Under the pieces are notes generated by a model. The model had not been told where the DNA came from. It was given only the letters and a program-made list of their open reading frames with translations, and made no database searches. Both the position numbers and the translations under genes were made by a program. From positions 6,283 to 70,282 of the forward strand of contig JAJYKS010000003.1 of NCBI GenBank assembly GCA_021788365.1: 64,000 bases of DNA, in the 5' to 3' direction. This document shows positions 4,953 to 44,670 of this stretch, piece after piece. Within the stretch, counting starts at the first letter, position 1; each line of letters opens with the position of its first letter. The DNA comes from a bacterium. Lineage in GTDB: Bacteria; Patescibacteriota; Microgenomatia; UBA1400; UBA12108.

Positions 4953-4984
4953 AATTTTCAATTTTCAGTTTACAATTTTCAAAT

Positions 4985-8604: not shown

Positions 8605-10542
8605 TCAGTTTGTCGGCTGAATCGGAGTGGAAACGGGGTTTGCTTGCGGGCCGGCATTCTGATTCGCTGGCACACTAGCCCGCTGATTTGCTGGTGTGCT
8701 ACCCGGCTGATTGTCCGGAATTTTGGCTGCCATGGCCACGGCTAGTTTTTGCTGCTTTGCCAAAAGTTCTCGAGGGTCGGTGGTGATTAGGCCATGCTCT
8801 TCTGGGGAGGCGACAACTTTTATGGCGACGTGGTTTTGGCCGGCGAAAAAAAGCGCTTCACCAACCTCGGCGGTGAGTAGCAAGTGTCGCTCTCCTTGGG
8901 AGAGATAGAAGACTTTAGCAAGGTTTTCTATCGCGGAAGTCGATTGTTTCATTAAAACCTGGATACTGCTGTTGCTGACGATAGCCTTCCCGTGGTCTGA
9001 TTTAAGAAAATCATCCACATCTTGTGTAATGGTGGTGAGCCCTAGAAAGTATTTGCGGGCTCGCTTGGCAATACTATAGAGAAAGTTGGCGGAGTCTTCG
9101 GATTTCATGAGGTACCAGGCCTCATCAACTACCAGTAAACGCCTCTTCATGTCGCGCTTTACCTTGGTCCAAATATAGTCAAGAATGATAAAGATGGCGG
9201 TTGGGCGCAGCTCGTCTTGAAGATTCTTAATACCAAACACTGTGAGTCTGTTTCCGAAGTTGACGTTTGATTTCTGTGAAAAAATGCCTTGAAAACTTCC
9301 CTTTACGTATTTTTCTAGCCTGTCTGCAAGGCCGCGGGCAACAGACTCTTCCATGCCAACAAGCGCCTTATATAAATCCTCCATGAGCGGTGGTTCTAGG
9401 TTGTGAGTTGCTGGGTCGCGCGTAATTCCCTTCATCTGATAGGTCATAACCAGCGCGCGGTCGAGGAGAGCTTCCTCGGTTGGGTTCATGTCGCCCATCA
9501 TGATTTTTAACAGTGAGTGGAGCGAGATGATTTTCATAGCGAGCTCGTTTTCATCCGGCTCAGCCATTTGTGGCAGCTCAAACGGATTTATACGATTTGG
9601 ACTGCTAAAGCTAAAATCAACATAGGTGCCACCCAGGGTTGTTGCAAGTTTGCGATACTCGTCTTCAGGGTCAATTGCAATAACCTCCGTGTCGAACAAC
9701 ATAGAGCGCAAAACCTCGAGTTTTACCATGTAGCTTTTGCCAGAACCGGATTTGGCAAACACAACCATGTTGGCGTTCTCTAGCGTAAAGCGATCAAAAA
9801 TAACGAGCGAGTCGTTGTGCTCATTGATGCCATACATAATCCCTTCATTTGCGGTCAGCTCACTTGAGGTGAAGGGAAAGGTGGTGGCAAGGCTCGTTGT
9901 GTCCATGTTGCGGTTAATTTTTAATTTGTCGAGGCCGGTGGGGAGCGTCGTCTTGAAGCCATCTTCTATTTGTAGCGTGGCAGTTTTGGCAACAATGAGG
10001 AGCGCGCCCAAAGCACTTTTTACTTGATTGGTCACCCGGTCGAGCATATCCTTTTTGTCGTCCCGGATCGTAACATAGAGTCCGAATTGAAAGAAGCGTT
10101 CGGCGCCCTTGGCGAGTTGTTCTTGTAGGGCGCGAGCATCTTCGAGCTTTACCTGAGTGTCAATGTTGACGATTCGGCCACGCTGGATGTCGCCCGCTAT
10201 TTCAGCCTCCATCTCGGCGATCTTGCGGCGCAAGTCTTCGATAACCCCTTTACCCTCTACTGGGTAAATAAACATAGAGATAGTAAGGCTGTGATTAAAG
10301 TTTATGAGTGGCGAAAGCCAGTTGGCGTTTACAAAGCGTGGGTAGCCGGCGACAAAGAGGGTGCGGTAGTAGGTATCGTTGATTTTAATATCGGAAAAAT
10401 CGACCTCAATGGCTTCTGGGGCGATAATGTCTTTGACGTTGGACGTTCCCTGTGAGAGAACTTGTACCGGCTGAGAGACGGCAGGGCCACTAGTATCGTC
10501 TTTCTTTTTCGGCATGAATGGAAAGGGCAGGTTAAGAGCCAT
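8605..10542 (-). CDS. VirB4/TrbE/CagE-like type IV secretion ATPase
   Basis: 645 aa with Walker A VVFAKSGSGKSYMVKLE, Walker B LLVVDEAW, and the N-terminal DUF87-like region typical of VirB4. The low-complexity C-terminal tail (PANQ repeats) is encoded by the octamer-periodic element. Confidence 0.8.
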   Translation of the reverse strand: MALNLPFPFMPKKKDDTSGPAVSQPVQVLSQGTSNVKDIIAPEAIEVDFSDIKINDTYYRTLFVAGYPRFVNANWLSPLINFNHSLTISMFIYPVEGKGVIEDLRRKIAEMEAEIAGDIQRGRIVNIDTQVKLEDARALQEQLAKGAERFFQFGLYVTIRDDKKDMLDRVTNQVKSALGALLIVAKTATLQIEDGFKTTLPTGLDKLKINRNMDTTSLATTFPFTSSELTANEGIMYGINEHNDSLVIFDRFTLENANMVVFAKSGSGKSYMVKLEVLRSMLFDTEVIAIDPEDEYRKLATTLGGTYVDFSFSSPNRINPFELPQMAEPDENELAMKIISLHSLLKIMMGDMNPTEEALLDRALVMTYQMKGITRDPATHNLEPPLMEDLYKALVGMEESVARGLADRLEKYVKGSFQGIFSQKSNVNFGNRLTVFGIKNLQDELRPTAIFIILDYIWTKVKRDMKRRLLVVDEAWYLMKSEDSANFLYSIAKRARKYFLGLTTITQDVDDFLKSDHGKAIVSNSSIQVLMKQSTSAIENLAKVFYLSQGERHLLLTAEVGEALFFAGQNHVAIKVVASPEEHGLITTDPRELLAKQQKLAVAMAAKIPDNQPGSTPANQRASVPANQNAGPQANPVSTPIQPTN

Positions 10543-10544
10543 AT

Positions 10545-10672
10545 CCTATCAGTATACCAGCTAGTCGGCGAGTCGGCGGGCCGGCATGTCGGCTTGTCAG
10601 CGAGGCCGGAAAACCGATGCACCGATTTAACTGATTGGCTGACTAGCTGATTTGCTGATTTGCCGACTATCT
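10545..10672. repeat. Octamer-periodic (NNGTCGGC)n / (GCTGATTT)n intergenic element, one of at least five copies
   Basis: TAGTCGGC GAGTCGGC GGGCCGGC ATGTCGGC TTGTCAGC ... GCTGATTT GCTGATTT GCCGACTA. It is flanked on the gene side by CAGTATAcc (TATACT -10 on the coding strand) 8 nt before the VirB4 ATG. Confidence 0.5.
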
Positions 10673-11305
10673 GGCCACGTTGGGGGCGACGACGGGCTGC
10701 TCGTAGTCGGCGGCGGTGCCAAATTTTTGCCCCTTTACCGTTGCGTTATAGAAGCTGTGAAAGAGGGACATAAGATTTTGGGTGTTGAGCTGGTTAGCTG
10801 TTAATCCAATGCGCGTTAGTTGCTTAATAATGTGATCGCGCTTTGGCTCGAGGTCGGCCTTCGCTTTGTCGATAAGACTTTGGTCTATTACCACCTTTCC
10901 TGAAAGGGTGATCATCTGATAGGAAATAACCACATAAAATTTTTTATCCAAAACATTCTGTTCGGTGATTGTTGTTTCCACAAACTGGCGGTACTTGTGC
11001 ATGCGGTCTTGCAAAACGGGATCGTGAAGCTTTTTCTCTTGTGTGCTTAGTAACTCGAGGTAGGAGCTAATGTCCTTTTTGTCGGATTTTACGACTATTT
11101 GGATGGGAAAACTAAGCGAATTTAGTAGGCCGGCATACGCGTAGATGGTGGCGTCTTGTTCTTCCTCAGAAAGCAGGCCAAAATTAATGGCGGAAGTAGA
11201 TATTAACATGCTGCAGGTGCCATTTTTTAATATAACGAGGTCATCTTGGATTGTTTCTACGTCGAGATGATCCTGAGTGGTTGCGACAATGACATTGTTG
11301 TCCAT
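10667..11305 (-). CDS. Hypothetical protein of the T4SS-like cluster
   Basis: 212 aa, soluble, no recognised motif. It is preceded by a TATACT leaderless-type promoter and an octamer array. Confidence 0.45.
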   Translation of the reverse strand: MDNNVIVATTQDHLDVETIQDDLVILKNGTCSMLISTSAINFGLLSEEEQDATIYAYAGLLNSLSFPIQIVVKSDKKDISSYLELLSTQEKKLHDPVLQDRMHKYRQFVETTITEQNVLDKKFYVVISYQMITLSGKVVIDQSLIDKAKADLEPKRDHIIKQLTRIGLTANQLNTQNLMSLFHSFYNATVKGQKFGTAADYEQPVVAPNVAR

Positions 11306-11437
11306 ACGGACTCAGTATATCAGTAGGTCGGCAAGTCAGCGAATCGGTTGGTCGGTATGTCGGCTTGCCAGTAATCGCCGAAACCTGGCTTACAGGTTTA
11401 GCTGGTTAGCTGACCCGCCGGTTTGCTGGTGTGCCGA

Positions 11438-12475
11438 TTATTGTGCTCGGAGGAGGATGGGGGGGATGATGTCTCCTTTGGTTGTCAGCGATTGTGGGGC
11501 GAACTTGAGACCATCCTTTTCCACTTCAATGGCATAGGAGCCGTTTCCGAGAGGTGTGGTGGTAAAAAACTGTCCAAGGCCGTTGGTTTTCATGGCGCGG
11601 GCGGGGATCCCGTCTCCCATCACTACCTGAACAATGGCGTTTTCTACTAGGTGCCCCCCTTTGTCGACGACTATTCCCGTTATCACATTGGGGATTTGGG
11701 GCGCGGCGGGCAGCTTAATTGTTGTCAGGGGGGTAGACGCAACTTTTGGCGCGGTAGTGGGGCTTGTGGGGCGGGAGAAAACCACATCAACCGTTGGCGG
11801 AGGGCTTTGTGGGGTTTTTGTGGGTGCTGCTGCAACGGTGGGTGTTGGCGTCACGGGGATCGATATCGTACGTAACGGTGGCGCGGGCGGGGTCGCCGCC
11901 GGAGACGGAGCGTTGTTATCGAATACTATACTTTTTGCTTTTAGTTTGCGGATTGTTACTGCGGGCTTGGCGCTACTGGTTTCGACGATGGTAACTGGTG
12001 GAACGGCGGGGGAGATGTGTACTTTCTGAAATAGCGCGTCGACCTCGTGGACCTGCTTTGCTTCTTCTGTCGAGAGGTCGCTTGTTACCGTTTTTCGTAC
12101 GGGAAGCGTTGGTGCTTTGAGTGTTTTTACCGCCGTAGGAGTATCTACAAAAATGTGGGCGGCGAAGGTAAACATTTCAGGAATGGTATTTGTCTTTTTC
12201 CAAACGAAACGGGTGGGGCCATAGATGGCTTTAACAAAATTAAGTGCCCAGATGTCCAGTGGACGATCTTCGAGTGGAAAGAATGCAAAGGCTATTCCAC
12301 CAAAAAGCGAGATGAGTGCGAGCGGCCACTTGAATATAAAAATCAGATTGCTCGCATAGAAAAGGTAGGCGACGAGCATCCCGGCAGCTAGTTCCAAAAA
12401 TTGTTTGAGCGTCATGTCTCCCACAAGGCGGAACTGATATTGTGTAACGTTCTGAGGAATGGGGTGTTGCTGCAT
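11438..12475 (-). CDS. PrgI/VirB3-like membrane protein with a Pro/Thr-rich linker and a C-terminal beta-sandwich (carboxypeptidase-regulatory-like) domain
   Basis: The N-terminus FRLVGDMTLKQFLELAAGMLVAYLFY plus two TM helices resembles PrgI-family VirB3 analogues. A long PT-rich spacer precedes the GIVVDKGGHLVENAIVQV...GSYAIEVEKDGL fold. The likely start is the ATG at 12473-12475 (MQQHPIP; the ORF-track start at 12499 is a TTG), with a TATACT box 6 nt upstream. Confidence 0.5.
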   Translation of the reverse strand: MQQHPIPQNVTQYQFRLVGDMTLKQFLELAAGMLVAYLFYASNLIFIFKWPLALISLFGGIAFAFFPLEDRPLDIWALNFVKAIYGPTRFVWKKTNTIPEMFTFAAHIFVDTPTAVKTLKAPTLPVRKTVTSDLSTEEAKQVHEVDALFQKVHISPAVPPVTIVETSSAKPAVTIRKLKAKSIVFDNNAPSPAATPPAPPLRTISIPVTPTPTVAAAPTKTPQSPPPTVDVVFSRPTSPTTAPKVASTPLTTIKLPAAPQIPNVITGIVVDKGGHLVENAIVQVVMGDGIPARAMKTNGLGQFFTTTPLGNGSYAIEVEKDGLKFAPQSLTTKGDIIPPILLRAQ

Positions 12476-12508
12476 GGCTCTAGTATACAGGGTTAACAAA
12501 AGAGAACA

Positions 12509-16020: not shown

Positions 16021-19000
16021 ATGGCTATCCAGGAAAAATTGGGAGAAGGGTTCGAGGCTGCACAGCATTCTGGGTTTGGTGAGGCGGGTGCGGATGGCGT
16101 GGTAAAAGAAGCGTTAAAACAGATCAAAAGGGATAAAGGCCCGAGTAAACTAAGCCCTGATCAGACGAGAACATTGTTGCTTCTAGACATATTGCGTACG
16201 CTATCTGCCGACAAAGGACTGACGGGAATAAAGTCGACCCTTGATAGGCTGGAGACACAATTTTCTGTCGCGGCAATGGCCTCTTTTGGCCAGAAAGATA
16301 TTGATGTCATCGCTGAACAGCTGGAAAGACAAGGAAAGAAATTCCAAGCTGATGTTGGAGGTCCGGACAAGGATTTATTGAAAGATGTGGGTTTGCTTGT
16401 TAGGAGTTCGAGGTGGGCGGATGCGTCGGCATTGGTTAGGCGCGCGATTGTTGACGCTAACACGAGGCGTGAAATTGATTCAACACAAAATACTCGATTA
16501 GTGCAGTCTGTTGATGATTTTGATTCTGCAAACCTTGGGCGGATGCGATCTCGTATCGTCGGACTAGAAATGGAACAGGTGGCGAGGAAAGTTCCCGGTA
16601 CTGGTGAGATAGCTAATGAAATGGAACGAGCCGCTCGACTAGAGGTTGGTGTGGCCAGAAGGTATGTGGAAATACTGAGGGGAACTCCACAGCAAGATGA
16701 TATAGACCCCAGCCTAAAGATAGACACGGCTGTTATAGCGGAGGCCGACATTAATTCCTTTGTAAATGACTTACATAGTAGGAGTCCTAAAATAGCAATG
16801 GCAGATGAGCGAAGGCTACGCCATTTTAAACAGGAGGTTACCAGCAATTGGAGCGATTTAAATACGGGGATAGATTTGGATGAATGGTCTCGTGGAAGCG
16901 ATAGCGTTCACCAGGACAGACAGCGCTATATTAGAGAGGCATCTGCTGTGGCGAACCACGTTTTGTTTCTGAAGGCAAGGGGAGAGGTAATACTGTCTAC
17001 GAACGAGGAGGAATACTTGAGGGCGGTGCAAAAGGCCACATCGGCGGTGAAGCGGTCGTGGGTGGAGGAAGCTGTCCATGAGGGGGAAGCAGCTACTCCC
17101 ACAGATGAATTGACCCCAGATGAGGTGCGAGAGTTAAAGAAACAGGCCTCCAACATTGGTTTACTGGCAGAGATGGGTAGTGGACAAGGGTTTGCGGATT
17201 GGGCTAAGCGGCAAAGGACGCGCAACCCGAGAGGGAGTTGGAATTTAGACACAGAAAGTTCTGAGGGGGGGTTTAGCTTTCAGGAAAAAATAATGGAGTT
17301 GCGCGACGCCGGAATGTTGGAGATTGAAGACGGGCAGATAGTGTGGCTAAAGGGTCCGGACGAGTTCTTTGGAGTAATGTCAGAACTAGCGCGTGACGTG
17401 TCGGCGATAGTGCCAGAAGTAAACCAAATACCCTTTTCCAGGTCACCTAAAGCTATGTTGTATCAGGCTTTGATGGAATCGGCGGCGCATCCAGGGAGTC
17501 GGGGGGATCTGGCTTGGGCGAAGGATGCGGTATTCCGTCTATACACAATGGGATATGTAAAGGAGGCGTTGTGGAAAAAGGGTGGAGACGTAGAGTCATT
17601 TGCCGGCGCCGCACTCGCCCTGTTGGGTCAAGGAGAGGATGATACTGTTTATTCATCTTTGTTTAGATTTCACGAGACGGTAAGAGAGAGGGGATCTACG
17701 GGTGAGATAGGGGATGAAATAATAAAAATTGACCTTCGGGATATGCTAGATTTTTCCGAGCGATACTCAAGAGTGAGGGATGGAAAGCGAAGCTGGTTGA
17801 ACGCGATTTCTGCTGGAGAGCTTAATAGCGGCGTGCACGATGCTACAAGTAAGCCACAACGAATGGAATTTTTTTATGATTATATGAAATGGGTGCTGGA
17901 TAGACAGCTGGACATGGGAGAGATAGATGCAAATACACATACAAAGAGAATAGCGGCTATTGGTACGTCTGCTCATGACAGAAAACACGAAAATATCTTT
18001 GATGTATATGGTCAGTATTATACAAATTTAGTAAAGGTGATGCAGTCTATCCAGCTGAGGTATGGCGAGGTGGCCGTAAACCAAGTGATTAGCGGGGGTG
18101 GATTCGAGTTTTGTAATCCCCCTGGGGGTGAGGCTCCCTATAAGTATCATAAAAATACCGTATGGAAGTTTTGTGCGCGGTATGTCCCCAATAATAAATT
18201 TGCTGAGTTTTTGGACGCTTACGACGGTGGAGTAGATATGGCCATGGTATCGTCGATTGCGTATGCACGCAAGGAGACAGTGCCGCATTTTTGCTTAGAG
18301 AGTAGTGAGCCGGGCGCCAATCCGGGCGCCGACAAATATTTCTTTGAAACCGAGGCAAATTTGTCCAATCGAGCTAAGTGGGCTAAGCAGTGGGTCAATT
18401 TTTGGAAGCCGGCTATGTTCGACAGCGATGCACATCGAGATGGAAAGTATCGCGATACTGATGAAATTAGGATGATCGAAGAAACGCAGGAGATTGCTGA
18501 GAGACAATTGAATAGTTGGTCGGCCGCCGACTTAGGATTCATTGACCATGTTGATTATACAAAATTAAGTGAGGCGAGTGGCTACGACTTTGAGCAAATT
18601 TTCCAAAGGAAAAACATTACTGATCCGAAAGAAAAGTTTAAATATGTAATTAAGAATTATGGATATAAGTATTTTGAGTGGAATGGGTTTCGATCTAAGA
18701 GGGTGGGAGATTTTTACACGAAGTACTTGCCGAAGAATTATGCGGGGGTGTACGGGGCAGCTATCAAGTTGAGTATGAATGCAACAAATGACGAATCTGC
18801 GTTTGAAGCGTCGCAAAACATTGACGCGTTTAGTGGCTCGGAGAAATTTATGGAAGATATTGACGTTGTGATGGAAAAGATGAATAAGCGGACCTGGCTC
18901 GGTATAAGAAAACCTAAAACTAAAGGCGGCAAGGGGTGGTTGAACGTTGACCAAAAAGGAGAAAAGGCAAAGATTGATTTGGAGGGCGACTTTGAGTTGT

Positions 19001-19365
19001 CTCTGAAAGGGCTTTTGCCAGGAGCGCTTTCGCGTACTTCTCTGGCTGGCTACTATCTGAGACATCGTGATCCCGACTGGATGCGCCCCGTTTTGTGGGA
19101 GCAAGCTTACGAGAGGGGGCAGATGCGACCAGAAACGTTTGAAAAGAGGATGCGTGATTATAAGGGGGAGATGTATTTTGGCGCGGGAGTTGCTGGTACT
19201 GGATTCCGGTGGGGATATGTTCCGATTTTGACGCCCTTTACTTTGGCAAGGGGCTGGTTTGTTGACAAATTACACCTGGATGTAGACGACTTCTGGTGGA
19301 TTACCAGGAAGGCAAACAAGGATTTTTGGGAAGAATTTAAAAAAGTAATGAATATTAAAGTTTAA
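16021..19365 (+). CDS. Very large (1114 aa) hypothetical soluble protein, divergent from the T4SS-like cluster
   Basis: A long uninterrupted ORF with no TM segment, P-loop or other recognised motif. Confidence 0.55.
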   Translation: MAIQEKLGEGFEAAQHSGFGEAGADGVVKEALKQIKRDKGPSKLSPDQTRTLLLLDILRTLSADKGLTGIKSTLDRLETQFSVAAMASFGQKDIDVIAEQLERQGKKFQADVGGPDKDLLKDVGLLVRSSRWADASALVRRAIVDANTRREIDSTQNTRLVQSVDDFDSANLGRMRSRIVGLEMEQVARKVPGTGEIANEMERAARLEVGVARRYVEILRGTPQQDDIDPSLKIDTAVIAEADINSFVNDLHSRSPKIAMADERRLRHFKQEVTSNWSDLNTGIDLDEWSRGSDSVHQDRQRYIREASAVANHVLFLKARGEVILSTNEEEYLRAVQKATSAVKRSWVEEAVHEGEAATPTDELTPDEVRELKKQASNIGLLAEMGSGQGFADWAKRQRTRNPRGSWNLDTESSEGGFSFQEKIMELRDAGMLEIEDGQIVWLKGPDEFFGVMSELARDVSAIVPEVNQIPFSRSPKAMLYQALMESAAHPGSRGDLAWAKDAVFRLYTMGYVKEALWKKGGDVESFAGAALALLGQGEDDTVYSSLFRFHETVRERGSTGEIGDEIIKIDLRDMLDFSERYSRVRDGKRSWLNAISAGELNSGVHDATSKPQRMEFFYDYMKWVLDRQLDMGEIDANTHTKRIAAIGTSAHDRKHENIFDVYGQYYTNLVKVMQSIQLRYGEVAVNQVISGGGFEFCNPPGGEAPYKYHKNTVWKFCARYVPNNKFAEFLDAYDGGVDMAMVSSIAYARKETVPHFCLESSEPGANPGADKYFFETEANLSNRAKWAKQWVNFWKPAMFDSDAHRDGKYRDTDEIRMIEETQEIAERQLNSWSAADLGFIDHVDYTKLSEASGYDFEQIFQRKNITDPKEKFKYVIKNYGYKYFEWNGFRSKRVGDFYTKYLPKNYAGVYGAAIKLSMNATNDESAFEASQNIDAFSGSEKFMEDIDVVMEKMNKRTWLGIRKPKTKGGKGWLNVDQKGEKAKIDLEGDFELSLKGLLPGALSRTSLAGYYLRHRDPDWMRPVLWEQAYERGQMRPETFEKRMRDYKGEMYFGAGVAGTGFRWGYVPILTPFTLARGWFVDKLHLDVDDFWWITRKANKDFWEEFKKVMNIKV

Positions 19366-20912
19366 GTTTCTTCTTTTTTGATTTGGTTTTGGGCGGTGTT
19401 TTGCTGTGTTTTTGAGAGGTTTCCACCCAATAGCTTTGCTTGGTACTCCATGAGGTGTCGTTGACGGCCCTCTTCTCTGGCGGTGTTGATCCAGCTTGTC
19501 GGGTACTTCATTGCTAATCCATATCCACCGAGAGTGTTGCCGAATGCCTCGGCGGTGTATGGAGACTCCTTTACCTGTAGCCAATCTTGCGCCATCTTGA
19601 CCGCGGCTGGAGTCATCAAAAAGATAAAGAAACCAATGAGCGTCAGAACGTCGGAGTTGTAGAGGTTGGCGTCGGTTAACGTGAATGGCGGTAACCAGAT
19701 TTTATCGCGGTTTTGATAGAGTGCGGCCGATTGGTTAACCCCAAAGGGGTTTGCGTCGCGGGGATCGAGTGAGCCTAGGATTGTTTTGTCGGTGGGGTTG
19801 CCTACGAGGATGGCGCTAAAAATAAACATGGCGGCTGCAACCGGGAAGGGAATGAGGTAGCTGGCGGTTGTCTTTAGCCAAGTACTAAACGATTTGCTAC
19901 CAGGCATGGCGTTCATGAGTAGTTGGAGCGGGGCTGTTATGGTCTGTACGATGAGCATAACGTACGCTTTTACCAGTGCAAACATGAGCTTTAGCATGGC
20001 TATGGCGAAGGCGATCGCGACTATAAGATAACCTATCCCAAAGATACTGACAAACCCAACTACCGAGCCAGCAGCCCCTAGCACACCGGTGCCAAGTCCT
20101 GATAAAACGGCCCTGATAGAGGCGGCAACCGCTGAGATAATACTATTTCTTCCTGCAAAGATTACCGACCAAGCGGAATAGGACATAAAGCGGGTAATGA
20201 GCTTGGTGGGGTCGGAAATGATGCCCGCAGCCGCGACGAGGTACACCAGGAAATAGATAAGAAAATACATGAGGTCGATCATAAAGCCGACGATGGCGTA
20301 GCTAAAGGTGATGAGGATGAGGGTGATCAGAAGATTGGGGAGGGCGCTTTGAATGGTGACGATCGTTTGACCGCTAATCTTTGTTCGCAGCATGATCATA
20401 ATGCCGACAACCACAAACATGATGATATATAGAGAGTAGGCAACGTCACGAAATACTTTCCAGAATGGTAAGAATGGGGACATGGCCGTGTACCCCGTAC
20501 CTTGGGCGAACGCGTGCTGCACGGGGGAAAGGCCGGTGTTGCCTAGTAGGTCGGCGATGTATTCCTTGCTCGAGGGCATCATGGGGTCTGAATAGAGATA
20601 GGCGACAAAATTCCCGCTCTGAGGGACTAGGCCGGTAAGAACCTGATTGCCGCAGCCGTCTTGTAGTCCCACCACTTGTGTTGTAAGCGAAGCAATAATT
20701 GTCCCGGTGAGTCCTGGCCGCGTGGGATCGGATGGGTATGGTGTACTACACTTTGTTGAGGATGATGGCCTTCCCAGCATGTAGGGAACGAGACTGATGG
20801 ATTGCGAATTGAGACTATCTAGCTCGCTTGCCGCGTGAACCGGCTGAGCGACGAAAAATGTTGAAAAGAGTGCTACAAATAGTGGCAGGCAAAAATAAGC
20901 CAAGCGCTTCAT
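19362..20912 (-). CDS. VirB6/TrbL-like polytopic membrane protein with a signal peptide
   Basis: The likely start is MKRLAYFCLPLFVALFSTFFVAQPVHA (signal peptide; the ORF-track TTG start at 20963 is less likely). About 6-7 TM helices with long hydrophobic stretches (YLVYLVAAAGII..., IGYLIVAIAFAIAML). A TGcTAGAAT box lies 7 nt upstream of the ATG. Confidence 0.5.
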   Translation of the reverse strand: MKRLAYFCLPLFVALFSTFFVAQPVHAASELDSLNSQSISLVPYMLGRPSSSTKCSTPYPSDPTRPGLTGTIIASLTTQVVGLQDGCGNQVLTGLVPQSGNFVAYLYSDPMMPSSKEYIADLLGNTGLSPVQHAFAQGTGYTAMSPFLPFWKVFRDVAYSLYIIMFVVVGIMIMLRTKISGQTIVTIQSALPNLLITLILITFSYAIVGFMIDLMYFLIYFLVYLVAAAGIISDPTKLITRFMSYSAWSVIFAGRNSIISAVAASIRAVLSGLGTGVLGAAGSVVGFVSIFGIGYLIVAIAFAIAMLKLMFALVKAYVMLIVQTITAPLQLLMNAMPGSKSFSTWLKTTASYLIPFPVAAAMFIFSAILVGNPTDKTILGSLDPRDANPFGVNQSAALYQNRDKIWLPPFTLTDANLYNSDVLTLIGFFIFLMTPAAVKMAQDWLQVKESPYTAEAFGNTLGGYGLAMKYPTSWINTAREEGRQRHLMEYQAKLLGGNLSKTQQNTAQNQIKKEET

Positions 20913-20932: not shown

Positions 20933-21475
20933 CTACGGGTGGAGTCCCAGCTTTTGTACCCAAGCGGAAGTGGTTGTTTGGATATAGGGGATGTCGCTAT
21001 ATATGAACGTGAGCTTGGTGGGGTCGATCCCAGCGTTTTTCATGAGCGTTAACCCCTCGCTGTAGCCATCTTTGAAAGCGCTGACGTTGGGATTTGTAAA
21101 TGGGGAACTGTCGGGGTTGGCGTAGGATAAGCCGTAGATCTCAAAATATACGGTGCTGCCCCCGCTTGTATCGGTGCTAAAAATGTCGATATCTACTTCT
21201 ATATTCGCCGACGTTTTATAGGCGCCAAGATGGATGGGGAGTTTGTCGCTTATCGTCGAAACGTAATCACCTCCTGACGTAGGTGAAGTGGGAAACGAGC
21301 TAGGCGAAACTGTACGCATGCTTGACGTTGTAGACCCGCCCGTATTAGAGGAGCTTGGAGACTTTGGTGAAAAAAATAAAATAAGTACAAAGATACCTAG
21401 CGTGGCACCTATAGCAATCCGGACATATTTATTTTTGAGTAGCTCTTGATACACAATCTTTACTTCGGTATTCAT
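20933..21475 (-). CDS. Single-pass membrane protein with a Ser/Thr-rich extracellular region
   Basis: 180 aa with the TM helix IAIGATLGIFVLILFF followed by an S/T-rich linker. Its start overlaps the stop of the upstream gene (coupled). Confidence 0.45.
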   Translation of the reverse strand: MNTEVKIVYQELLKNKYVRIAIGATLGIFVLILFFSPKSPSSSNTGGSTTSSMRTVSPSSFPTSPTSGGDYVSTISDKLPIHLGAYKTSANIEVDIDIFSTDTSGGSTVYFEIYGLSYANPDSSPFTNPNVSAFKDGYSEGLTLMKNAGIDPTKLTFIYSDIPYIQTTTSAWVQKLGLHP

Positions 21476-21478
21476 AGC

Positions 21479-24286
21479 TTAGAATCCTGGTAGCTTAATA
21501 ATGCTGCCTGCCACTATTCGTAGTAGTACTCCCGCAAAAATAAGGAAGAGAAGACCCGTAACCGCGGCGGTGAAAAGCTCACGACCCTTCTTTATCTTTT
21601 CCTGATCTCCACCCGCAGTCATAATCTGTACTGTGCCCACGAACATGACAATTAAGGCAATCGCGCCCGCAATGCCACCCGCAAAGGTGAGGAGCACTGT
21701 TGTGAGACTACTCCCTATAGGGATGCATCCAAGTGCGGTGTCAATTGCATTCTCGCCACAGCGACCGTGAGGGTTGATGGTCCCCCTTGGTGAAAGTGTG
21801 GGTGTCGGTGCGGCTGACGCGGCTGCGCTCGCGTTTTGACTGGTTGCGAGATTGTAAACGGCGAGTGCGACGGCAAAGGCACCGGGACGATCATTCCCGT
21901 AGGGGGTCGGCTGGCCGGCCGTGAGATCACCATGATAAAGCAAATACATGTCTGTGTGACGAGCGTCTAGCATGTTGGTGGCGTAGGGGTCGTCGTCGCC
22001 AATAAACTGTCGCGGACAGCCACTGAAGGGTATGGGGAAGGGGTATCCCAGCTGGCAGTTGCTGTTCCCCCCACCGTTGAAGTCTGAGATATCGCCAATA
22101 AGTTCTTGGGTGTTGCTATGCGGATGATTCAGGAGTGTTTTCCCTGCGTTTATGGCAGATGTTTCTAATCCGCCATCTCGACTTGCGGCCCCACCATTTT
22201 GTACAGAAACGGTAGTGGGATCCCCGCCGTCGGTGAATGCGGAGCTTCCCTCTTCGAAGTGGATGCCGGCGATTACTTCGCAAGGGATACCCGTTGCTTG
22301 TTCTGCGGCAGCGTACGCTGACTCGAGTTTGGGATTTAGCTTGCCGTCAACAAACATGGCGGAATTTTTGACGACGTTTGTAGCCTCTAGAAGCGGTGCT
22401 TGCCAGGAAGAATCTTTAATAAGCGCTGCAAATTTGGTTCCGTCACAAAGTCCTGCGGTAGTTGTCGCCTGCTGACACCCTATACGCGTACCAAGCGCGT
22501 AAGCCTCTATTGAGGTTGAGAGCGGGGCGGAGTAGTCAGGATCGCTACAGGTAAATAAGCCCACCGCCCGCTGGGAGTTGGCTATGCTCATAGGCTTCCC
22601 GGCATAGGGAAAAACTCCCTGGTCGTTTACCGTATTAGACATGTTGCTGTTGTGCTCTGCTGCTTGTGTGAGGGTCGGCTCTGTGTCGCGGGTGTTATAG
22701 ACCATTTGTTGGAGGTCGGCTAAACTCTGACCCATCAAGTCAGGAATACTAAGATAGTGGAACGTTACCATGTCTACCATGTCGGTGGGGCGGGGATAGA
22801 TGGCGTTTAGGAAGTCCTGGATTATGTTGGATGTTGTGTACGCTCCACCGCTTTCTTTGGTCACATCGGCTGGTTGTATTTTATAACAGTCACTATCCAT
22901 AGAATCTTGATAGTCATAAATAAATCCTAGTTTGTTGAGCGTAAGTGGATTGTAGTTGTCCGCAACATAATGAAACGTTACGGGCTTGGTCGCGTCTCCA
23001 CATTTTACGACGTTGTCGTGGAGTTCGACGTCTAATTTCGCGGTGATTTTTGATGGTATGCCGGCAGGTAGTGTGCTTAAGAAGTATCTTGCGAGCGGGT
23101 TTTTAACAACAATGTCTTGAAAGATCTTCATTGCTTGGTCGAGTGGAAATGTAGTAAAGAGGTCATCCATGGCGGCAGCCCATGCCTGGTGAACCGTGGG
23201 GTCTGTATAGAGCGCTTTTGACTTTGCAAAATAGGGGAATGGACACTTTAATCCTGGGCAGCACCAAGCCCATAGACAAACTGATTTGCGCGTGTATCCA
23301 CGCTCGTTTGATGGGGGATACATGGGTGCTTGGGATAGGTCGACTGCCCAAGTGGCTGTAGGGTTTTCGTAGTAGGTGTTACAAAGGTCTTTTTCCGCCG
23401 CGGATGTGTCGATATTTTCACCCCCGAGGGTTGTTAGAAATTGCTCGTGGGCGTAGGTAATCCCATATGCGTCGCCACCGACGTTGCCCGGTAGTTCGCG
23501 AGCTATTTCGATCAAGGTCTTGCCATTTGGAGTCTGGAAATTCCAATTCACCCAGCCTAGGGGCCACTCCCCCGTGCCGGCGAGTGTGTCCTTTGTAAAC
23601 GCAGCCTGCTTTACCACAATGGCCTGCCGAACGAGGCGGTCACACATTGTCAGGGATAGGTCCAACATGCCGTTTGTGATTACATTGTCAGAACTTGAGT
23701 TGTAATCGTAGCGATATGCCTCGTTTTGTAGTTTGGGGTAGACGAGTACATTTCCCAATGAATCGGTAGGCGTTGTCGACGATGTGGACGATGAGTCGGG
23801 GCCAGTAGGGTTTGAGAAGTCGGTGCTTTGGACGGCGTCGCTACTCGTGGGTATACCTGTGTATTTACATTTTCCTTCGATGCTTGCAGGATCGACAGGG
23901 ATAAGCTTTCCATTGGCGTCGTACTCCTTGGGGATAACTTTTACACATTGCCCATGACGCCCGCCCATGACGTCTGATCTGGCCGTGTTATCGGTATTGT
24001 TGGTACAAAGATCTACCGGTCCGGTACAGTCTGTCTCGCTCTGGCATGTTTTGGCGCGCTGATCGTGGCATATGTGGAGCGGGGGATAGCGTCGATTGCG
24101 ATCCTGATTTTCGAAGACGATGAGGTTTGTTGGTTTAATAAAACGGTAGAGGGGAAAGAAGCTTTTGTAGAACTCATCGGTTGTCGGTTCTGCCGGATCG
24201 ATTGCAAATATCTTGGTGGCGTGGAGAAGGGACACAATGAGAAGGAGTAGTGTTGTAGCTAGGATGCGAAACCGTATCGAGCGCAT
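21479..24286 (-). CDS. Large secreted Cys-rich protein with a C-terminal VirB2-like pilin domain (candidate pilus tip / adhesin subunit)
   Basis: The likely start is the signal peptide MRSIRFRILATTLLLLIVSLLHA. The C-terminal ~75 aa (GIAGAIALIVMFVGTVQIMTAGGDQEKIKKGRELFTAAVTGLLFLIFAGVLLRIVAG) is paralogous to the small pilins and to the C-terminus of the 33339-33941 protein. The start is coupled to the upstream pilin gene through a TGAtATG junction. Confidence 0.55.
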   Translation of the reverse strand: MRSIRFRILATTLLLLIVSLLHATKIFAIDPAEPTTDEFYKSFFPLYRFIKPTNLIVFENQDRNRRYPPLHICHDQRAKTCQSETDCTGPVDLCTNNTDNTARSDVMGGRHGQCVKVIPKEYDANGKLIPVDPASIEGKCKYTGIPTSSDAVQSTDFSNPTGPDSSSTSSTTPTDSLGNVLVYPKLQNEAYRYDYNSSSDNVITNGMLDLSLTMCDRLVRQAIVVKQAAFTKDTLAGTGEWPLGWVNWNFQTPNGKTLIEIARELPGNVGGDAYGITYAHEQFLTTLGGENIDTSAAEKDLCNTYYENPTATWAVDLSQAPMYPPSNERGYTRKSVCLWAWCCPGLKCPFPYFAKSKALYTDPTVHQAWAAAMDDLFTTFPLDQAMKIFQDIVVKNPLARYFLSTLPAGIPSKITAKLDVELHDNVVKCGDATKPVTFHYVADNYNPLTLNKLGFIYDYQDSMDSDCYKIQPADVTKESGGAYTTSNIIQDFLNAIYPRPTDMVDMVTFHYLSIPDLMGQSLADLQQMVYNTRDTEPTLTQAAEHNSNMSNTVNDQGVFPYAGKPMSIANSQRAVGLFTCSDPDYSAPLSTSIEAYALGTRIGCQQATTTAGLCDGTKFAALIKDSSWQAPLLEATNVVKNSAMFVDGKLNPKLESAYAAAEQATGIPCEVIAGIHFEEGSSAFTDGGDPTTVSVQNGGAASRDGGLETSAINAGKTLLNHPHSNTQELIGDISDFNGGGNSNCQLGYPFPIPFSGCPRQFIGDDDPYATNMLDARHTDMYLLYHGDLTAGQPTPYGNDRPGAFAVALAVYNLATSQNASAAASAAPTPTLSPRGTINPHGRCGENAIDTALGCIPIGSSLTTVLLTFAGGIAGAIALIVMFVGTVQIMTAGGDQEKIKKGRELFTAAVTGLLFLIFAGVLLRIVAGSIIKLPGF

Positions 24287-24572: not shown

Positions 24573-24754
24573 ATGGAGAGATTATAGCAGGAAGAAGTGG
24601 TCAATGATGTTTTGTCTCGCCGTGTTCTCAAATGAAAGACCGACCCACCTGGTCGCGTGCGCCACAATTTTGCAGTGCTCACAGCTTACTGGAACAACCA
24701 GTTCGACGCTCCGCGCTGAAAATTGCTCTGCACGCTCCCCTTTTGGCGAGTTAC

Positions 24755-25105
24755 TTAGTAAGCTTTCGGGGGGTTGATGTTGCCATTCAATACTGAAATC
24801 CCGAAGAAGTATTGAATGATAAGCATTACAGCCCATGCGGAGGCAACGACGGCAAGACCAACCAAGGCGGCCGTTATGCGATCGCGTGCTTCTTGTGTCT
24901 TCCCCTTGTCACCACCAGAGGTGATCCACTGAATGCCACCCCAAATAAGGTAGGCAAAAACGAGCAGGGCGGCTATCAAGAGTGCGCCTTGGACGGCACC
25001 CTGAATGAGCGTGCCGATGTTGGTAATCTGGACGTTGTCAGGCTTGTTGACGGATAGGTCGGGGGCTGCTGGTGCTTGAGCTAGAGCTACTGGGATAAGA
25101 TTCAT
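24755..25105 (-). CDS. VirB2/TrbC-like T4SS pilin paralogue 2
   Basis: 116 aa with the GGIQWITSGGDKGKTQEARDRITAALVGLAVVASAW motif. It has its own TTGACA-N17-TAAACT promoter and a canonical SD AAAGGAGG. Confidence 0.7.
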   Translation of the reverse strand: MNLIPVALAQAPAAPDLSVNKPDNVQITNIGTLIQGAVQGALLIAALLVFAYLIWGGIQWITSGGDKGKTQEARDRITAALVGLAVVASAWAVMLIIQYFFGISVLNGNINPPKAY

Positions 25106-25162
25106 ATATTTCCTCCTTTATGTGTGTAGTTTATTTTTTTATACGCCTGTTGTCAATTTATT

Positions 25163-25468
25163 TTATTTTGTGATTCCGATGCCGAAGAAATAGTCGATGA
25201 GACGGAAGATGGCCCAGGATGCCGCTACGATGGCTAGACCCAAGATGGCGTTGGTAATGCGATTTCTTGCCTCTTCTAGCTTTCCCTTTTCGCCGCCCGA
25301 GGTTACCCATTGAACACCGCCGTAGATCATATAGATAAAGGTGGCGAGTCCTGCAACCATGATGACGGCGGAGATGGATTTTGAGACAAATGTGCCGAGC
25401 GAACTGTTAACGGCGACGCGAGACTGGACTTCACTGCCAATGTTTATGTCAAAGCTGCTTGCTGCCAT
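25163..25468 (-). CDS. VirB2/TrbC-like T4SS pilin paralogue 3
   Basis: 101 aa with GGVQWVTSGGEKGKLEEARNRITNAILGLAIVAASW. An SD AAGGA lies 8 nt upstream. Confidence 0.7.
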   Translation of the reverse strand: MAASSFDINIGSEVQSRVAVNSSLGTFVSKSISAVIMVAGLATFIYMIYGGVQWVTSGGEKGKLEEARNRITNAILGLAIVAASWAIFRLIDYFFGIGITK

Positions 25469-25535
25469 ATATTATTCCTTCATTCCCTCGACTGTCGCTC
25501 GGGATTTCGGGCTATTTTTATATTTATTAATGTCC

Positions 25536-25913
25536 TCAACCCGCTGTTGGCCACTTAACGTTTAATAGGTCGATCCCGAGTGCTGCTTGGAGGAATTTGA
25601 TAATGACATATGAGGCAACGAGAATGGCGAGACCAATCAGGCCCTGTGTGATGTGGTTCTTTGCGTCTTCTAATTTACTCTTTTCGCCGCCAGAGAGGAT
25701 CCAGTTTACCGCCCCCCAGAGGAAGTACATCATGAATGCGAGACCACCGACAATAATGATTGTTTGCCATAGGGTACCAACGGTTACGGCAAATTGTTTC
25801 CCCTGATCTCCGCCACCCCCACCCGGAACGGCGACGTTGGTTATTGTGGCATGAGCGACTGTAGGAGATAGGAGGTAGGAGATGGGAGATAGGAAGGCAA
25901 TGAGTTTTTTCAT
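25536..25913 (-). CDS. VirB2/TrbC-like T4SS pilin paralogue 4
   Basis: 125 aa with a signal peptide and GAVNWILSGGEKSKLEDAKNHITQGLIGLAILVASY. A TAAtATG junction couples it to the upstream gene. Confidence 0.7.
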   Translation of the reverse strand: MKKLIAFLSPISYLLSPTVAHATITNVAVPGGGGGDQGKQFAVTVGTLWQTIIIVGGLAFMMYFLWGAVNWILSGGEKSKLEDAKNHITQGLIGLAILVASYVIIKFLQAALGIDLLNVKWPTAG

Positions 25914-25914
25914 A

Positions 25915-26271
25915 TTATTTAAAGGTCATACTTTGGATAAGTGTGCCTGGATTCAGAATGTCGACACCTAGGGCTTTCCCAACGATCCATACAATGGAGT
26001 AAGAAACGGTAATGATGATCATTCCAATGGCGCCATTGGTCATCATGTTTTTGGCGTTTTCGATCTTATCTTTTTTGCCACCGGCTGTAATCCAGTTGAG
26101 TCCACCCATGAGAAACCAGAGAGTAAAGGCAAGCCCGCCTACGATGGTCAGGATGGCAAGAGAGTTGCTGATGATTTTTTCGAGTGGGTTAGTGTAGGCG
26201 GCGACACCAGAGCCACCACCGGGCTGGTATCCGCCGGGAGTTGTGATTTGGCTAAAGTTTATATTTGCCAT
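25915..26271 (-). CDS. VirB2/TrbC-like T4SS pilin paralogue 5
   Basis: 118 aa with GGLNWITAGGKKDKIENAKNMMTNGAIGMIIITVSY. Confidence 0.7.
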   Translation of the reverse strand: MANINFSQITTPGGYQPGGGSGVAAYTNPLEKIISNSLAILTIVGGLAFTLWFLMGGLNWITAGGKKDKIENAKNMMTNGAIGMIIITVSYSIVWIVGKALGVDILNPGTLIQSMTFK

Positions 26272-26272
26272 G

Positions 26273-26614
26273 TTAGTAGCTCCCCGGACCCGTGATACTG
26301 GGCTGCAGAATGGCGGTTGCGGAACCGAAAAGTAGGAAGCTGACGACGCCGGTTATGGCGGCTGCAGCGACCATGACTATGAGGCCAATCAGCGACATAT
26401 TGATGGATGAAATGGCTTGTTCTATCTTCTTTTGGTCGCCATTGCTGGTTATGTAGGTGAAACCGGCGTACATGAGATTGAAAAAGGCAAAAAGGCCAGC
26501 AGCGGCGAAGATAACCTTAACTACGTTGGAGATGAAAAGGGGAAGGCCAGTGTTGACCGAGCCATAACTCGTGGACGGTAAAGGGTTGTTGATGCCACCA
26601 AATACACTTGCCAT
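26273..26614 (-). CDS. VirB2/TrbC-like T4SS pilin paralogue 6
   Basis: 113 aa with AGFTYITSNGDQKKIEQAISSINMSLIGLIVMVAAA. Confidence 0.65.
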   Translation of the reverse strand: MASVFGGINNPLPSTSYGSVNTGLPLFISNVVKVIFAAAGLFAFFNLMYAGFTYITSNGDQKKIEQAISSINMSLIGLIVMVAAAAITGVVSFLLFGSATAILQPSITGPGSY

Positions 26615-26622
26615 AGGCGCTA

Positions 26623-26979
26623 TTATAAACCACTGTTGAGGATCTGCACTCCTGTAACAACTTGAATAATCTGGATGATCCAGTATGATCCGAAAAGTAC
26701 CAATAAACCAACTAACGCAGATGTGATGATTTTACTTCCTTCTTTGGTTTTTTCTGAGTTCCCAGCGTTTGCGACAATGGTAAAGCCGCCGAACACGATC
26801 ATAAAAAAGATAACAAGGCCAGCAGCAACGTAGACGTTGGGGAGGATGGCGTTTATCAGCTTGCTTGCATTGGGGTAGGTAGAGGTGGCAGTGGAATTGC
26901 CCTGGAACAGAAGCTTGTCGCCGAGATTGAAACCAGTAGCGGCCATAGTGAGGAAATTATAGCAGGTTGAGCTGGCCAA
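26623..26979 (-). CDS. VirB2/TrbC-like T4SS pilin paralogue 7 (first gene of the operon)
   Basis: 118 aa with GGFTIVANAGNSEKTKEGSKIITSALVGLLVLFGSY. A TGCTATAAT box lies 9 nt before the ATG. Confidence 0.65.
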   Translation of the reverse strand: MASSTCYNFLTMAATGFNLGDKLLFQGNSTATSTYPNASKLINAILPNVYVAAGLVIFFMIVFGGFTIVANAGNSEKTKEGSKIITSALVGLLVLFGSYWIIQIIQVVTGVQILNSGL

Positions 26980-33338: not shown

Positions 33339-33941
33339 TTAAAACCCTGGTAATTGAATGATACCACCCGCGACGATTCGAAGGAGTACAACTGCAAAAA
33401 TTATAAAAATAATTCCCATAACTGCGCCACCAAATAGTTCTTTTCCCTTCTTTACCGCCTCTGGGTTTCCGCCTCCCGTCATTATTTGGACTGTCGCCGA
33501 TAACATAACAACCAACGCGATTGCTCCCGCTATGCCTGAAGCGAATGTGAGAAGGTCTGGTGTAAATGTCCCGGGCTTGTACGGAATACATCCTATGGCA
33601 GTGTCAATCTTGCCATCGCCACACGTTCCTTGTGGATCTGTTTGGACGTGAGGTGTTCCAGTAAGCGCACCGGACGGTTGTGTTTGAGCCGTTTGCATGA
33701 GCTGATTGCAGTCTGCGGCGCCTGCGCAACAGTATCGACTTACGCTACCCGTTCCCGAACGAGAGATAGAGCAAAAAAAGGACTGAGAAGAGCTAGGGTC
33801 GCACGAGCTAGCAGCAATATTGGAGCAGGCCGCGTAAGCCTTGGGTGCGACGATCGTGCAGGTAATCGCGAGCGCAACGAAGATGCTTGGGATATATGAT
33901 AGGATGGATCTATGTTTCCGCGCCCGGTAAAGTTGCTGCAT
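33339..33941 (-). CDS. Secreted Cys-rich protein with a C-terminal pilin domain (short paralogue of the 984-aa protein)
   Basis: 200 aa with a signal peptide, a Cys-rich segment, and a C-terminus (GIAGAIALVVMLSATVQIMTGGGNPEAVKKGKELFGGAVMGIIFIIFAVVLLRIVAGGIIQLPGF) nearly identical in pattern to the 21479-24286 C-terminus. Confidence 0.55.
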   Translation of the reverse strand: MQQLYRARKHRSILSYIPSIFVALAITCTIVAPKAYAACSNIAASSCDPSSSQSFFCSISRSGTGSVSRYCCAGAADCNQLMQTAQTQPSGALTGTPHVQTDPQGTCGDGKIDTAIGCIPYKPGTFTPDLLTFASGIAGAIALVVMLSATVQIMTGGGNPEAVKKGKELFGGAVMGIIFIIFAVVLLRIVAGGIIQLPGF

Positions 33942-44424: not shown

Positions 44425-44586
44425 GGATTTAGTATAGACAATTCTGATGGTCGCCTACATCAGGATTACGGCGAACTAAAGCGGATTTATCTCGCTGAAA
44501 CCTCGCCCTAGGGGATATGAAGAAATATATTCGTGGGAAATCTAAGTTGTAAGCCCGCCTTCGCTAAAGCTACGGCGAGGTGAAAG

Positions 44587-44670
44587 CGGAGACGGTGGGA
44601 GTCGAACCCACAGGACCCTTTTGGGGCCACGGTTTAGCGAACCGTCCGAGTACCGTTGTCGCACGTCTCC
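44587..44670 (-). tRNA. Class II tRNA with a long variable arm, anticodon GCU (tRNA-Ser)
   Basis: Minus-strand read GGAGACG..ACGGT-UCGCUAA-ACCGU-[16-nt variable arm]-GUGGGUUCGACUCCCAC-CGUCUCC-G. T-loop GTTCGAC. CCA is not encoded. Loop position 33 is C, which is unusual. Confidence 0.65.

Follow-up and report, generated by a model that had tools for sequence, protein, structure and literature searches.

A putative peptidoglycan hydrolase joined to a C-terminal VirB2-like pilin module in a type IV secretion cluster of a Microgenomates bacterium

The window analysed here is a stretch of 64,000 nucleotides from a bacterium of the Microgenomatia (Patescibacteriota; assembly GCA_021788365.1, contig JAJYKS010000003.1, positions 6,283 to 70,282 of the forward strand), in which a type IV secretion system (T4SS) cluster contains a gene for a secreted protein of 935 residues that ends in a pilin module. 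We give a probability of about one half to the reading that this large protein is the wall hydrolase of the secretion system, equivalent to VirB1, and was fused in this subclade to a VirB2-like pilin. The pilin module occupies the last ~95 of the 935 residues (about 10%), and the large protein is accordingly described here as a pilin-domain fusion, not a canonical pilin of ~100 residues. Its anatomy, derived from 20 full-length homologues that are 36-63% identical, comprises a signal peptide, a Cys-rich ectodomain termed Nect, a second domain termed Cect, a linker, a Cys loop and a hairpin, the coordinates of which are collected in Table 1.

Evidence for the pilin module and the extracellular part

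Comparison of the large protein with a 200-residue protein encoded elsewhere in the window by BLASTP gave one significant high-scoring segment pair, which joins residues 817-935 to residues 83-200 at 59% identity (E 8e-38), and outside this segment the two proteins show no similarity. This result bears out the statement of the initial annotation that the C-terminal ~100 residues of the two proteins are collinear, while its description of the 200-residue protein as a paralogue holds for the pilin module and not for the whole large protein, as the N-terminal parts are unrelated. Both C-termini were also said to match the core of the small pilins, and a hidden Markov model (HMM) constructed solely from the window's eight small pilins recovered them at E 2e-9 (2.3e-9 for the large protein). 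The conserved GG..K..KG core was looked for and found, flanked by two hydrophobic helices, and alignment with the eight small pilins preserves the G..K..G core. The hydrophobic segments lie at residues 860-894 and 902-935 of the large protein, separated by the loop GGDQEKIKKGRE, and at residues 127-158 and 166-200 of the 200-residue protein; two hydrophobic helices around a basic loop make the C-terminal similarity a specific one, not generic hydrophobicity.

All eight small proteins of the window match the Pfam family PF18895 (T4SS_pilin), membership of which is set by a curated threshold of 26.6 bits, and the 200-residue protein exceeds this cut-off with 30.6 bits. In the large protein the match to this family spans residues 865-924, and a database entry identical to the large protein carries a precomputed PF18895 tag. 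As judged from these family matches, the pilin is of the T4SS/VirB2 type, predicted to form a VirB2-like two-helix pilin, and is not a type IV pilin. A minor pilin of a type IV pilus was considered and rejected, because the pilin stands at the wrong (C-terminal) end and the signal peptide is of the wrong kind. The large protein has neither a class III (prepilin peptidase) signal nor an N-terminal alpha-1 helix; its N-terminus is the Sec signal peptide MRSIRFRILATTLLLLIVSLLHATKIFA, and further hydrophobic helices are present only at the extreme C-terminus. Moreover, no VirB5/TraC family was found among the Pfam and NCBIfam matches of the large protein, the 200-residue protein and their neighbours.

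Among the 20 homologues, mean pairwise identity amounts to 44-49% in Nect, 52% in Cect, 23% in the linker and 64% in the pilin module, which is thus the best-conserved region of the protein, and this argues for a function beyond anchoring. The Cys loop, which is of the disulfide type and has the consensus CGxxxIxTALGC[IL]P, lies outside the PF18895 model. A strongly conserved [KQ]LPGF terminates the long pilins, lying at the C-terminus or within ~2 residues of it (21482-21496 in the large gene, 33342-33356 in the 200-residue gene, and family-wide), with the variants IPGF, LPGFGG and IPGL, and the 94-residue small pilin of the window ends in FKFGF. A reading of the LPGF end as a sortase signal of the LPXTG kind was rejected, as nothing follows LPGF.

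Both long proteins begin with a Sec-type signal peptide, in agreement with the earlier claim of secretion, and their N-terminal parts should therefore be extracellular. The large protein is also Cys-rich, as had been noted, with 22 Cys of which ~17 are invariant or nearly so across the 20 homologues. Nect has no match in Pfam, NCBIfam, PHROG or PDB, and for the ectodomain as a whole single-sequence and profile searches of Pfam, NCBIfam, PHROGs and PDB likewise returned nothing. The one match in PDB, to designed PLS-PPR repeat proteins, had an E of 5e-7 that was accumulated over three repeats of ~9 bits each, and it was discarded as a repeat-summation artefact. When Nect was searched for elsewhere, only ~20 Woesebacteria-like proteins were found to carry it. 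AlphaFold2 (AF2) was confident on Nect only at residues 206-330 and 365-425, and the full-length AF2 model was poor, with a predicted local distance difference test (pLDDT) score of 56, so that a Foldseek search with it was uninformative.

A lysozyme-like domain in a conserved operon slot

Modelled alone by AF2, Cect reached a pLDDT of 92.5 and a predicted template modelling score of 0.90. The top 50 Foldseek matches of this model in PDB and BFVD belong nearly all to the lysozyme superfamily, namely g-type lysozyme, MltF, MltC, MltE, GH73 glucosaminidases and SLT/GEWL phage proteins. Cect was also aligned by hhalign with a template alignment of five Escherichia coli SLT domains (Slt70, MltC, MltD, MltE and MltF), which gave a probability of 84.7% with an alignment of 37 Cect sequences and 85.9% with one of 21 sequences (E ~6e-6). 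In the register of this alignment E679 coincides with the 'ES' motif's catalytic Glu, and ALSxYNGGGN with the AYNxG motif (YNGGG with YNAG). As controls, 100 column shuffles gave at most 1.8%, the reversed template 0.3% and unrelated query alignments 0.1-0.3%. E679, NGGGNxNC (737-744), D766 and Y768 are invariant in the 37 divergent Cect sequences, and one relative joins a Peptidase_M23 domain to Cect.

From the hhalign alignment, the fold-search matches and the one fusion to an M23 peptidase, Cect is predicted, at a moderate level of confidence, to be a divergent wall glycosidase of the SLT/GH23 kind and to act as the VirB1 equivalent of the cluster. The SLT-like nature of this module of the ectodomain was missed by the initial annotation. 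According to passages of PMC12102498, a VirB1 can rarely be detected close to virB4 in Patescibacteria, and its place may be taken by other glycosidases, a remark with which a Cect domain acting as the VirB1 equivalent would fit well.

A scan for Cect over the genomes of 185,579 species yielded 50 loci, while word-indexed homologue searches, with the domain alone and then with the 37-sequence profile, gave only 3 and 14 proteins. The loci belong to Microgenomates, including Woesebacteria, Collierbacteria, Levybacteria and others. In ~45 of the 50, the Cect protein sits in the same operon slot, which follows either an array of seven pilin genes or VirB4 itself. The gene after this slot encodes g180, a protein of 180 residues, in most of these loci. 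The region N-terminal to Cect varies widely (200-1500 residues), and Nect is confined to a Woesebacteria-like subset. Four proteins consist of Nect and Cect and end right after Cect without a pilin (L015, 784 residues; L016, 802; L018, 729; P0020, 778), and g180 directly follows these pilin-less orthologues in all three loci in which the downstream gene is covered. Outside one subclade, the Cect protein lacks the pilin module in all other lineages.

The fused pilin module most resembles the long pilin of the 200-residue type. In a neighbour-joining tree of the modules, which is based on a short alignment and carries no support values, one group unites the fused modules with the 200-residue-type modules of the same clade and excludes the 200-residue orthologues of other lineages. 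Since pilin-less orthologues hold the same slot and the tree groups the modules in this manner, the event was probably a fusion at the level of the domain. The sequence comparisons thus support a scenario in which, within one subclade, a copy of the C-terminal module of a 200-residue-type pilin became attached to an enzyme gene that already existed.

As for the gene itself, translation is best started at ATG 24286, which is the start of a 100%-identical database protein of 935 residues (P0001), of all homologue N-termini and of a public gene call (GCA_027372535.1, contig DAHXIW010000001.1). The length of 984 residues given earlier would need a start at GTG 24433, which was rejected because it overlaps the upstream pilin gene and is backed by no homologue. 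The 94-residue pilin gene is translationally coupled to the large gene through TGAtATG (24290-24284), in which the pilin stop comes first and the large-gene start second, and a pilin of 90-98 residues stands immediately 5' of the large gene in those Woesebacteria-like loci in which the upstream region is covered. The second junction, TAAtATG, is found at 33341-33335. Both stop-1nt-ATG junctions reported by the initial annotation do exist, and a small pilin follows the 200-residue gene as stated; at the large gene, however, the small pilin is the upstream partner and g180, a non-pilin that starts 3 nt past the large-gene stop, is the downstream one. The two loci therefore differ in gene order, as a small pilin precedes the large gene but trails the 200-residue gene.

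Possible mechanism and alternative explanations

If the protein is indeed a hydrolase fused to a pilin, Sec would export the ectodomain and the C-terminal hairpin would insert with both ends out and its Lys/Arg loop in the cytoplasm, in the manner of VirB2/TraA propilins. Those propilins form hairpins of N-out/C-out topology with the basic loop in the cytoplasm. The VirB4-driven pilin-assembly site might then treat the fused module as it treats a small pilin; such handling is suggested by the presence of a bona fide pilin module that is constrained more than the enzyme part. The lytic domain would thereby be positioned where the filament or channel crosses the peptidoglycan and, if the fusion were incorporated first, the enzyme would come to lie at the distal end, opening the wall of its own cell and possibly that of a host bacterium. 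Because of the outward N-terminal bulk of ~840 residues, the protein could be incorporated only in small numbers, be it at the tip, at the base or at scattered positions, and never as the major subunit, and a tip or decorating role, as the initial annotation had envisaged, is plausible. The most far-reaching version, in which the T4SS builds a VirB2-type filament led by the fusion protein, with the peptidoglycan-cutting enzyme at the pilus tip drilling first through the cell's own wall and then through that of the host, strikes us as rather improbable.

Several observations weigh against an enzyme that is mounted on a pilus. Regarding the enzyme, Cect went unrecognised by Pfam, NCBIfam and PHROG even at E<=10 (37 members) and had no sequence match in PDB; its Foldseek comparison with PDB and BFVD gave no significant match (E >=0.15, best 0.15-0.5, with template modelling scores of 0.26-0.34); and the hhalign probability was 85%, not >95%, and fell to 35% with a narrower alignment of 20 sequences. 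Regarding the pilin, the large protein scores 24.9 bits against PF18895 (E 2.1e-5), just under the gathering threshold of 26.6. The fusion appears dispensable for the core function, because the close orthologues L015, L016, L018 and P0020 lack the module, and the available evidence fits a tip, a base or a membrane-retained location alike. To date no Patescibacteria T4SS has been observed to form a pilus, according to the relevant parts of the review PMC12857230, and for this reason the word 'pilin' denotes homology here.

The main rival explanation, which we regard as unlikely but still deserving of serious attention, is that the hairpin is a tether only, i.e. a membrane anchor, possibly with affinity for the T4SS complex, which keeps the hydrolase at the surface and never brings it into a filament. 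The orthologues that occupy the same slot without the module indicate that the enzyme works without being a pilin, and a helical filament of the VirB2 type would not easily accommodate a passenger of 840 residues. PrgK and TraG of pIP501, for example, are multidomain hydrolases of monoderm T4SS that are anchored in the membrane, and given this usual anchoring of monoderm VirB1-like hydrolases a tether is also the simpler reading. However, the hairpin, the Cys loop and the KLPGF end are conserved more strongly than the rest of the protein (64-74%; the enzyme domain reaches 52%), while the sequence of a plain anchor tends to drift, and the module was apparently copied from a dedicated long-pilin family that is conserved only in that module.

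An adhesin at the tip or along the filament, as first proposed in the initial annotation, seems to us quite improbable; here the ectodomain would be non-catalytic, for example a binder of host-wall glycans, carried on a minor-pilin domain for attachment. Lysozyme-like folds are sometimes reused as glycan binders, the large, clade-specific, Cys-rich Nect has no enzymatic signature, and the N-extensions of the long pilins are highly variable, as is expected of host-recognition surfaces. By contrast, the Glu at the catalytic position and the AYNxG-like motif are invariant in the 37 divergent sequences, which is typical of an active enzyme, and the relative that combines an M23 peptidase with Cect resembles a bifunctional hydrolase. 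Adhesion and catalysis are compatible with each other, and the two functions do not exclude one another.

It is also conceivable, at very long odds, that the protein is a polyprotein or a pilin with an exceptionally long leader, and that cleavage between the linker and the Cys loop frees a VirB1-like enzyme and a short pilin. VirB2-type pilins do carry long cleaved leaders, and the disordered linker (23% identity, pLDDT <50) directly precedes a Cys loop that is strongly conserved; in Agrobacterium, VirB1 undergoes processing to VirB1* (PMC3202754). Yet the homologue alignment shows no conserved signal-peptidase or other cleavage motif at the junction, the same genomes make short pilins directly without such precursors, and open reading frames (ORFs) with several tandem pilins suggest that covalently linked pilin modules are tolerated. 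Finally, the duplication of a two-gene cassette of 'tip protein + pilin' at two loci, which the initial annotation had suggested because at both loci a long pilin-domain protein abuts a small pilin across a stop-1nt-ATG junction, has a negligible chance of being correct and was rejected, being contradicted by gene order (small pilin then large gene at one locus, 200-residue gene then small pilin at the other) and by domain distribution, as the similarity is limited to the last ~120 residues with unrelated N-terminal parts, conservation of both loci is ancient, a pilin-less protein occupies the large-protein slot in sister lineages and indeed in most lineages, and the neighbour-joining tree fits copying of the domain.

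The secretion cluster, the long-pilin class and known systems

Judged from its genes, the cluster is a chromosomal, dnaA-adjacent T4SS of the monoderm type (MPF-FATA-like) of Microgenomates, which belong to the ultra-small Patescibacteria or Candidate Phyla Radiation (CPR). Its core genes (8605..12499) lie 9-13 kb downstream of the large gene on the same strand, and this synteny is kept in related loci. A split VirB4 (8605-11305, minus strand) is also found in those related loci that cover the region, and the PrgI-like protein has an additional CarboxypepD_reg-like domain. The genes dnaN (7461-8558), dnaA (5852-7222) and yidC (4185-4961) adjoin the cluster, which is therefore situated beside the replication origin; such an origin-proximal position was previously observed for some Patescibacteria T4SS, as stated in passages of PMC12102498. 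Two further genes, for large conserved proteins, lie inside the cluster and are syntenic across many related loci: g1114 (16021-19365, on the opposite strand), whose product has no transmembrane (TM) segment and no family match, and g926 (15973-13193), with a hydrophobic region at about residues 620-737 and no family match. A 224-residue protein with a Big_5 Ig-like domain comes after these two. At 44586-44777 (minus strand), ARAGORN calls two adjacent tRNA-Ser genes, with the anticodon GCT and the unusual anticodon ACT.

Table 1. Coordinates of the genes of the secretion cluster and of the regions of the 935-residue protein within the window
Feature	Position	Strand	Basis or remark
Large-protein gene, 935 aa	21479..24286	-	ORF list; ATG 24286, stop 21481-21479
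Sec-type signal peptide, residues 1-28 (...TKIFA|IDP)	24203..24286	-	hydrophobic segment 3-32; predicted cleavage site
Cys-rich ectodomain Nect, residues 29-600	22487..24202	-	clade-specific
Cect domain, residues 601-815	21842..22486	-	predicted divergent SLT/GH23 lysozyme-like
Ala/Ser/Pro/Thr-rich linker, residues 816-842	21761..21841	-	23% mean identity; pLDDT <50
Cys loop CGENAIDTALGCIP, residues 843-856	21719..21760	-	70% mean identity; directly before first pilin helix
VirB2-like pilin hairpin, residues 857-935	21482..21718	-	helix 1, loop GGDQEKIKKGRE, helix 2, KLPGF end
Small T4SS pilin, 94 aa	24288..24572	-	PF18895 29.6 bits; TGAtATG junction to large gene
Six more small T4SS pilin genes (116, 101, 125, 118, 113, 118 aa)	24755..26979	-	all PF18895
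g180, 180 aa, one N-terminal TM helix (16-39)	20933..21475	-	directly 3' of Cect protein
g533, 516 aa, polytopic membrane protein	19362..20912	-	signal peptide and ~6 hydrophobic segments; conserved position
PrgI/VirB3-like	12499-11438	-	Pfam PrgI
TrsD-like VirB4 N-terminal piece, 212 aa	11305-10667	-	NCBIfam TrsD
VirB4 ATPase, CD1110 family, 645 aa	10542-8605	-	NCBIfam conju_CD1110 404.9 bits; Pfam TraG P-loop
200-aa long-pilin gene	33339..33941	-	PF18895 30.6 bits; BLASTP to large protein
Small T4SS pilin, 112 aa	32999..33337	-	PF18895 30.9 bits; TAAtATG junction, directly 3' of 200-aa gene

The 94-residue pilin gene and the six others form an array of seven (94-125 residues, 26979-24288), and arrays of seven are kept in related genomes; the six array pilins are 18-27% identical to the C-terminus of the large protein. 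A gap of 182 nt (24573-24754) precedes the 94-residue pilin gene, while other operon genes are 1-67 nt apart, and gaps of ~65-290 nt, mostly >100 nt, occur at the same spot in related loci. The four genes from the 94-residue pilin through the large protein and g180 to g533 may constitute a separate transcription unit. A scan of the operon for promoters and terminators did no better than shuffled sequences (13 against 8.5±2.8 and 12 against 8.7±3.0), and the promoter- and terminator-like sites in the gap were for this reason given no weight. No family match was obtained for g180. The protein g533 is a candidate VirB6 equivalent by its position and topology, and the family HMM scan of the window proteins gave no match for it; its start is ATG 20912 (516 residues) in the public call, while the ORF list has 20963, which overlaps the end of g180.

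The 200-residue protein consists of a signal peptide (residues 1-37), a Cys-rich extension (38-106) and a Cys loop with hairpin (107-200; nt 33623-33342), and belongs to the same long-pilin class as the large protein, with a short and variable Cys-rich passenger. Its orthologues (112-312 residues) adjoin a SpoIID gene in ~25 loci, including lineages without the fusion, and the divergent pairing of a long pilin with SpoIID is nearly constant (L004, L008, L009, L012, L013, L021-L042). In the window, the SpoIID-domain protein (PF08486; 33912-35711, plus strand; 599 residues, with an N-terminal coiled coil) is encoded divergently to the 200-residue gene, and the starts of the two genes overlap by 30 nt on opposite strands. 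SpoIID is a family of peptidoglycan-cleaving enzymes; if this member cleaves peptidoglycan, each of the two long pilins would be associated with a wall glycosidase, the large protein through fusion and the 200-residue protein through its neighbouring gene.

When 1.84 billion cluster representatives were searched with a profile of the Cys loop plus pilin, 14,839 matched at E <=1e-3 and 5,860 at E <=1e-10; ordinary short pilins will be among the weaker matches. The class was characterised on 146 new proteins among the best 150 of the 14,839 matches. The motif TA[ILVFM]GC was present in 133 of these 146, and 135 carried just one pilin domain, which in every case stood at the extreme C-terminus, with a median tail of 2 residues behind it. 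Among those 135, the N-extension has a median length of 169 residues, reaching at least 100 in 96 proteins and at least 200 in 48, and the longer extensions are usually Cys-rich, with a median of 8 Cys when >100 residues. An N-terminus resembling a signal peptide was found in 101 of the 120 proteins with an extension of at least 60 residues, and no Pfam domain was detected in the N-extensions of the 98 long-pilin proteins scanned. The architecture 'passenger + C-terminal VirB2-like pilin' is common in metagenomes, and the large protein thus marks its extreme. As well, two to eight tandem VirB2-like pilin modules occur in single ORFs (P0049, P0066, P0050, P0065, P0075 and P0126; P0049 has eight modules in 820 residues), which might be covalently concatenated arrays or gene-calling read-through.

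The pilin array itself is known biology. Chromosomal, origin-proximal, monoderm-type T4SS with VirB2-like pilin arrays have already been described for Patescibacteria in passages of PMC12102498, with arrays of 2-11 genes in Microgenomatia and Saccharimonadia (PMC12102498, PMC10633639, PMC12857230, in the parts that treat them), and Patescibacteria T4SS are reviewed in PMC12857230. In Southlakia epibionticum, the one species tested, a T4SS with a pilin array is reported in the relevant part of PMC10633639 to be essential for epibiotic growth. As far as those passages describe them, such arrays, including that of Southlakia epibionticum, share with the present one the family PF18895, tandem divergent pilins by T4SS genes and a location near dnaA. 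The long class found here is made up of signal peptide, Cys-rich passenger, Cys loop, pilin and LPGF end. The passages on pilins in PMC12102498, PMC10633639 and PMC12857230 deal with short pilins only and mention neither a long class nor a hydrolase-pilin fusion.

Among better-studied systems, Agrobacterium VirB1 is a T4SS lytic transglycosylase whose secreted C-terminal part, VirB1*, promotes T-pilus formation (PMC3202754). The large protein resembles it as a T4SS-operon polypeptide that would be linked functionally to pilus biogenesis and has a predicted SLT-type domain in which the catalytic Glu and the AYNxG-like motif align. Unlike in VirB1, the predicted SLT-like domain is beyond any HMM library, is preceded by a Cys-rich domain of 570 residues, is fused to a pilin instead of yielding a secreted peptide of the VirB1* type, and is found in a monoderm CPR bacterium. 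PrgK of pCF10, TraG of pIP501 and CwlT of ICEBs1 are similar in being large, membrane-associated, multidomain wall hydrolases of monoderm MPF-FATA-type T4SS with PrgI/VirB3, TrsD and a CD1110-type VirB4. Their anchor is an ordinary TM helix at the N-terminus, and their systems are not known to have any VirB2 pilin, whereas the anchor here is a C-terminal VirB2-like pilin hairpin. The relative with M23 and Cect is analogous to the SLT + CHAP architectures mentioned in part of PMC12102498. With the VirB5 tip protein, the PilY1-associated minor pilins and CofB/TcpB, the large protein shares the concept of a rare and bulky functional subunit at the filament end; it has no sequence relationship to VirB5 and no VirB5 match in the Pfam scan, and unlike type IV minor pilins, with their N-terminal helix and class III signal, it has a C-terminal two-helix pilin and a Sec signal peptide.

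What is new here is the predicted identity of the SLT-like module, its fixed slot in the T4SS clusters of Microgenomates and the breadth of the long-pilin class, since C-terminal VirB2-like pilin modules with N-terminal passengers, common as they are in metagenomes, go undiscussed in the cited passages of the T4SS literature. How Patescibacteria T4SS cross two walls, and whether they build any pilus, is treated as an open question in the corresponding part of PMC12857230, and a conserved, previously unrecognisable SLT-like domain in a fixed operon slot is a candidate for the wall-opening enzyme that had been missing. The natural covalent joining of this putative enzyme to a VirB2-like pilin also offers a concrete and testable handle on pilus assembly. 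The fusion suggests that these bacteria mount or dock a wall-opening enzyme on the filament of the secretion system and, if the enzyme does ride the filament, wall degradation would be coupled to a secretion pilus in a novel manner. Should such a filament be led by the fusion protein, the enzyme at its tip would open the conduit through which auxotrophic episymbionts obtain what they need, and the thousands of passenger-pilin proteins would amount to a general display of interchangeable enzymes or adhesins on T4SS pili.

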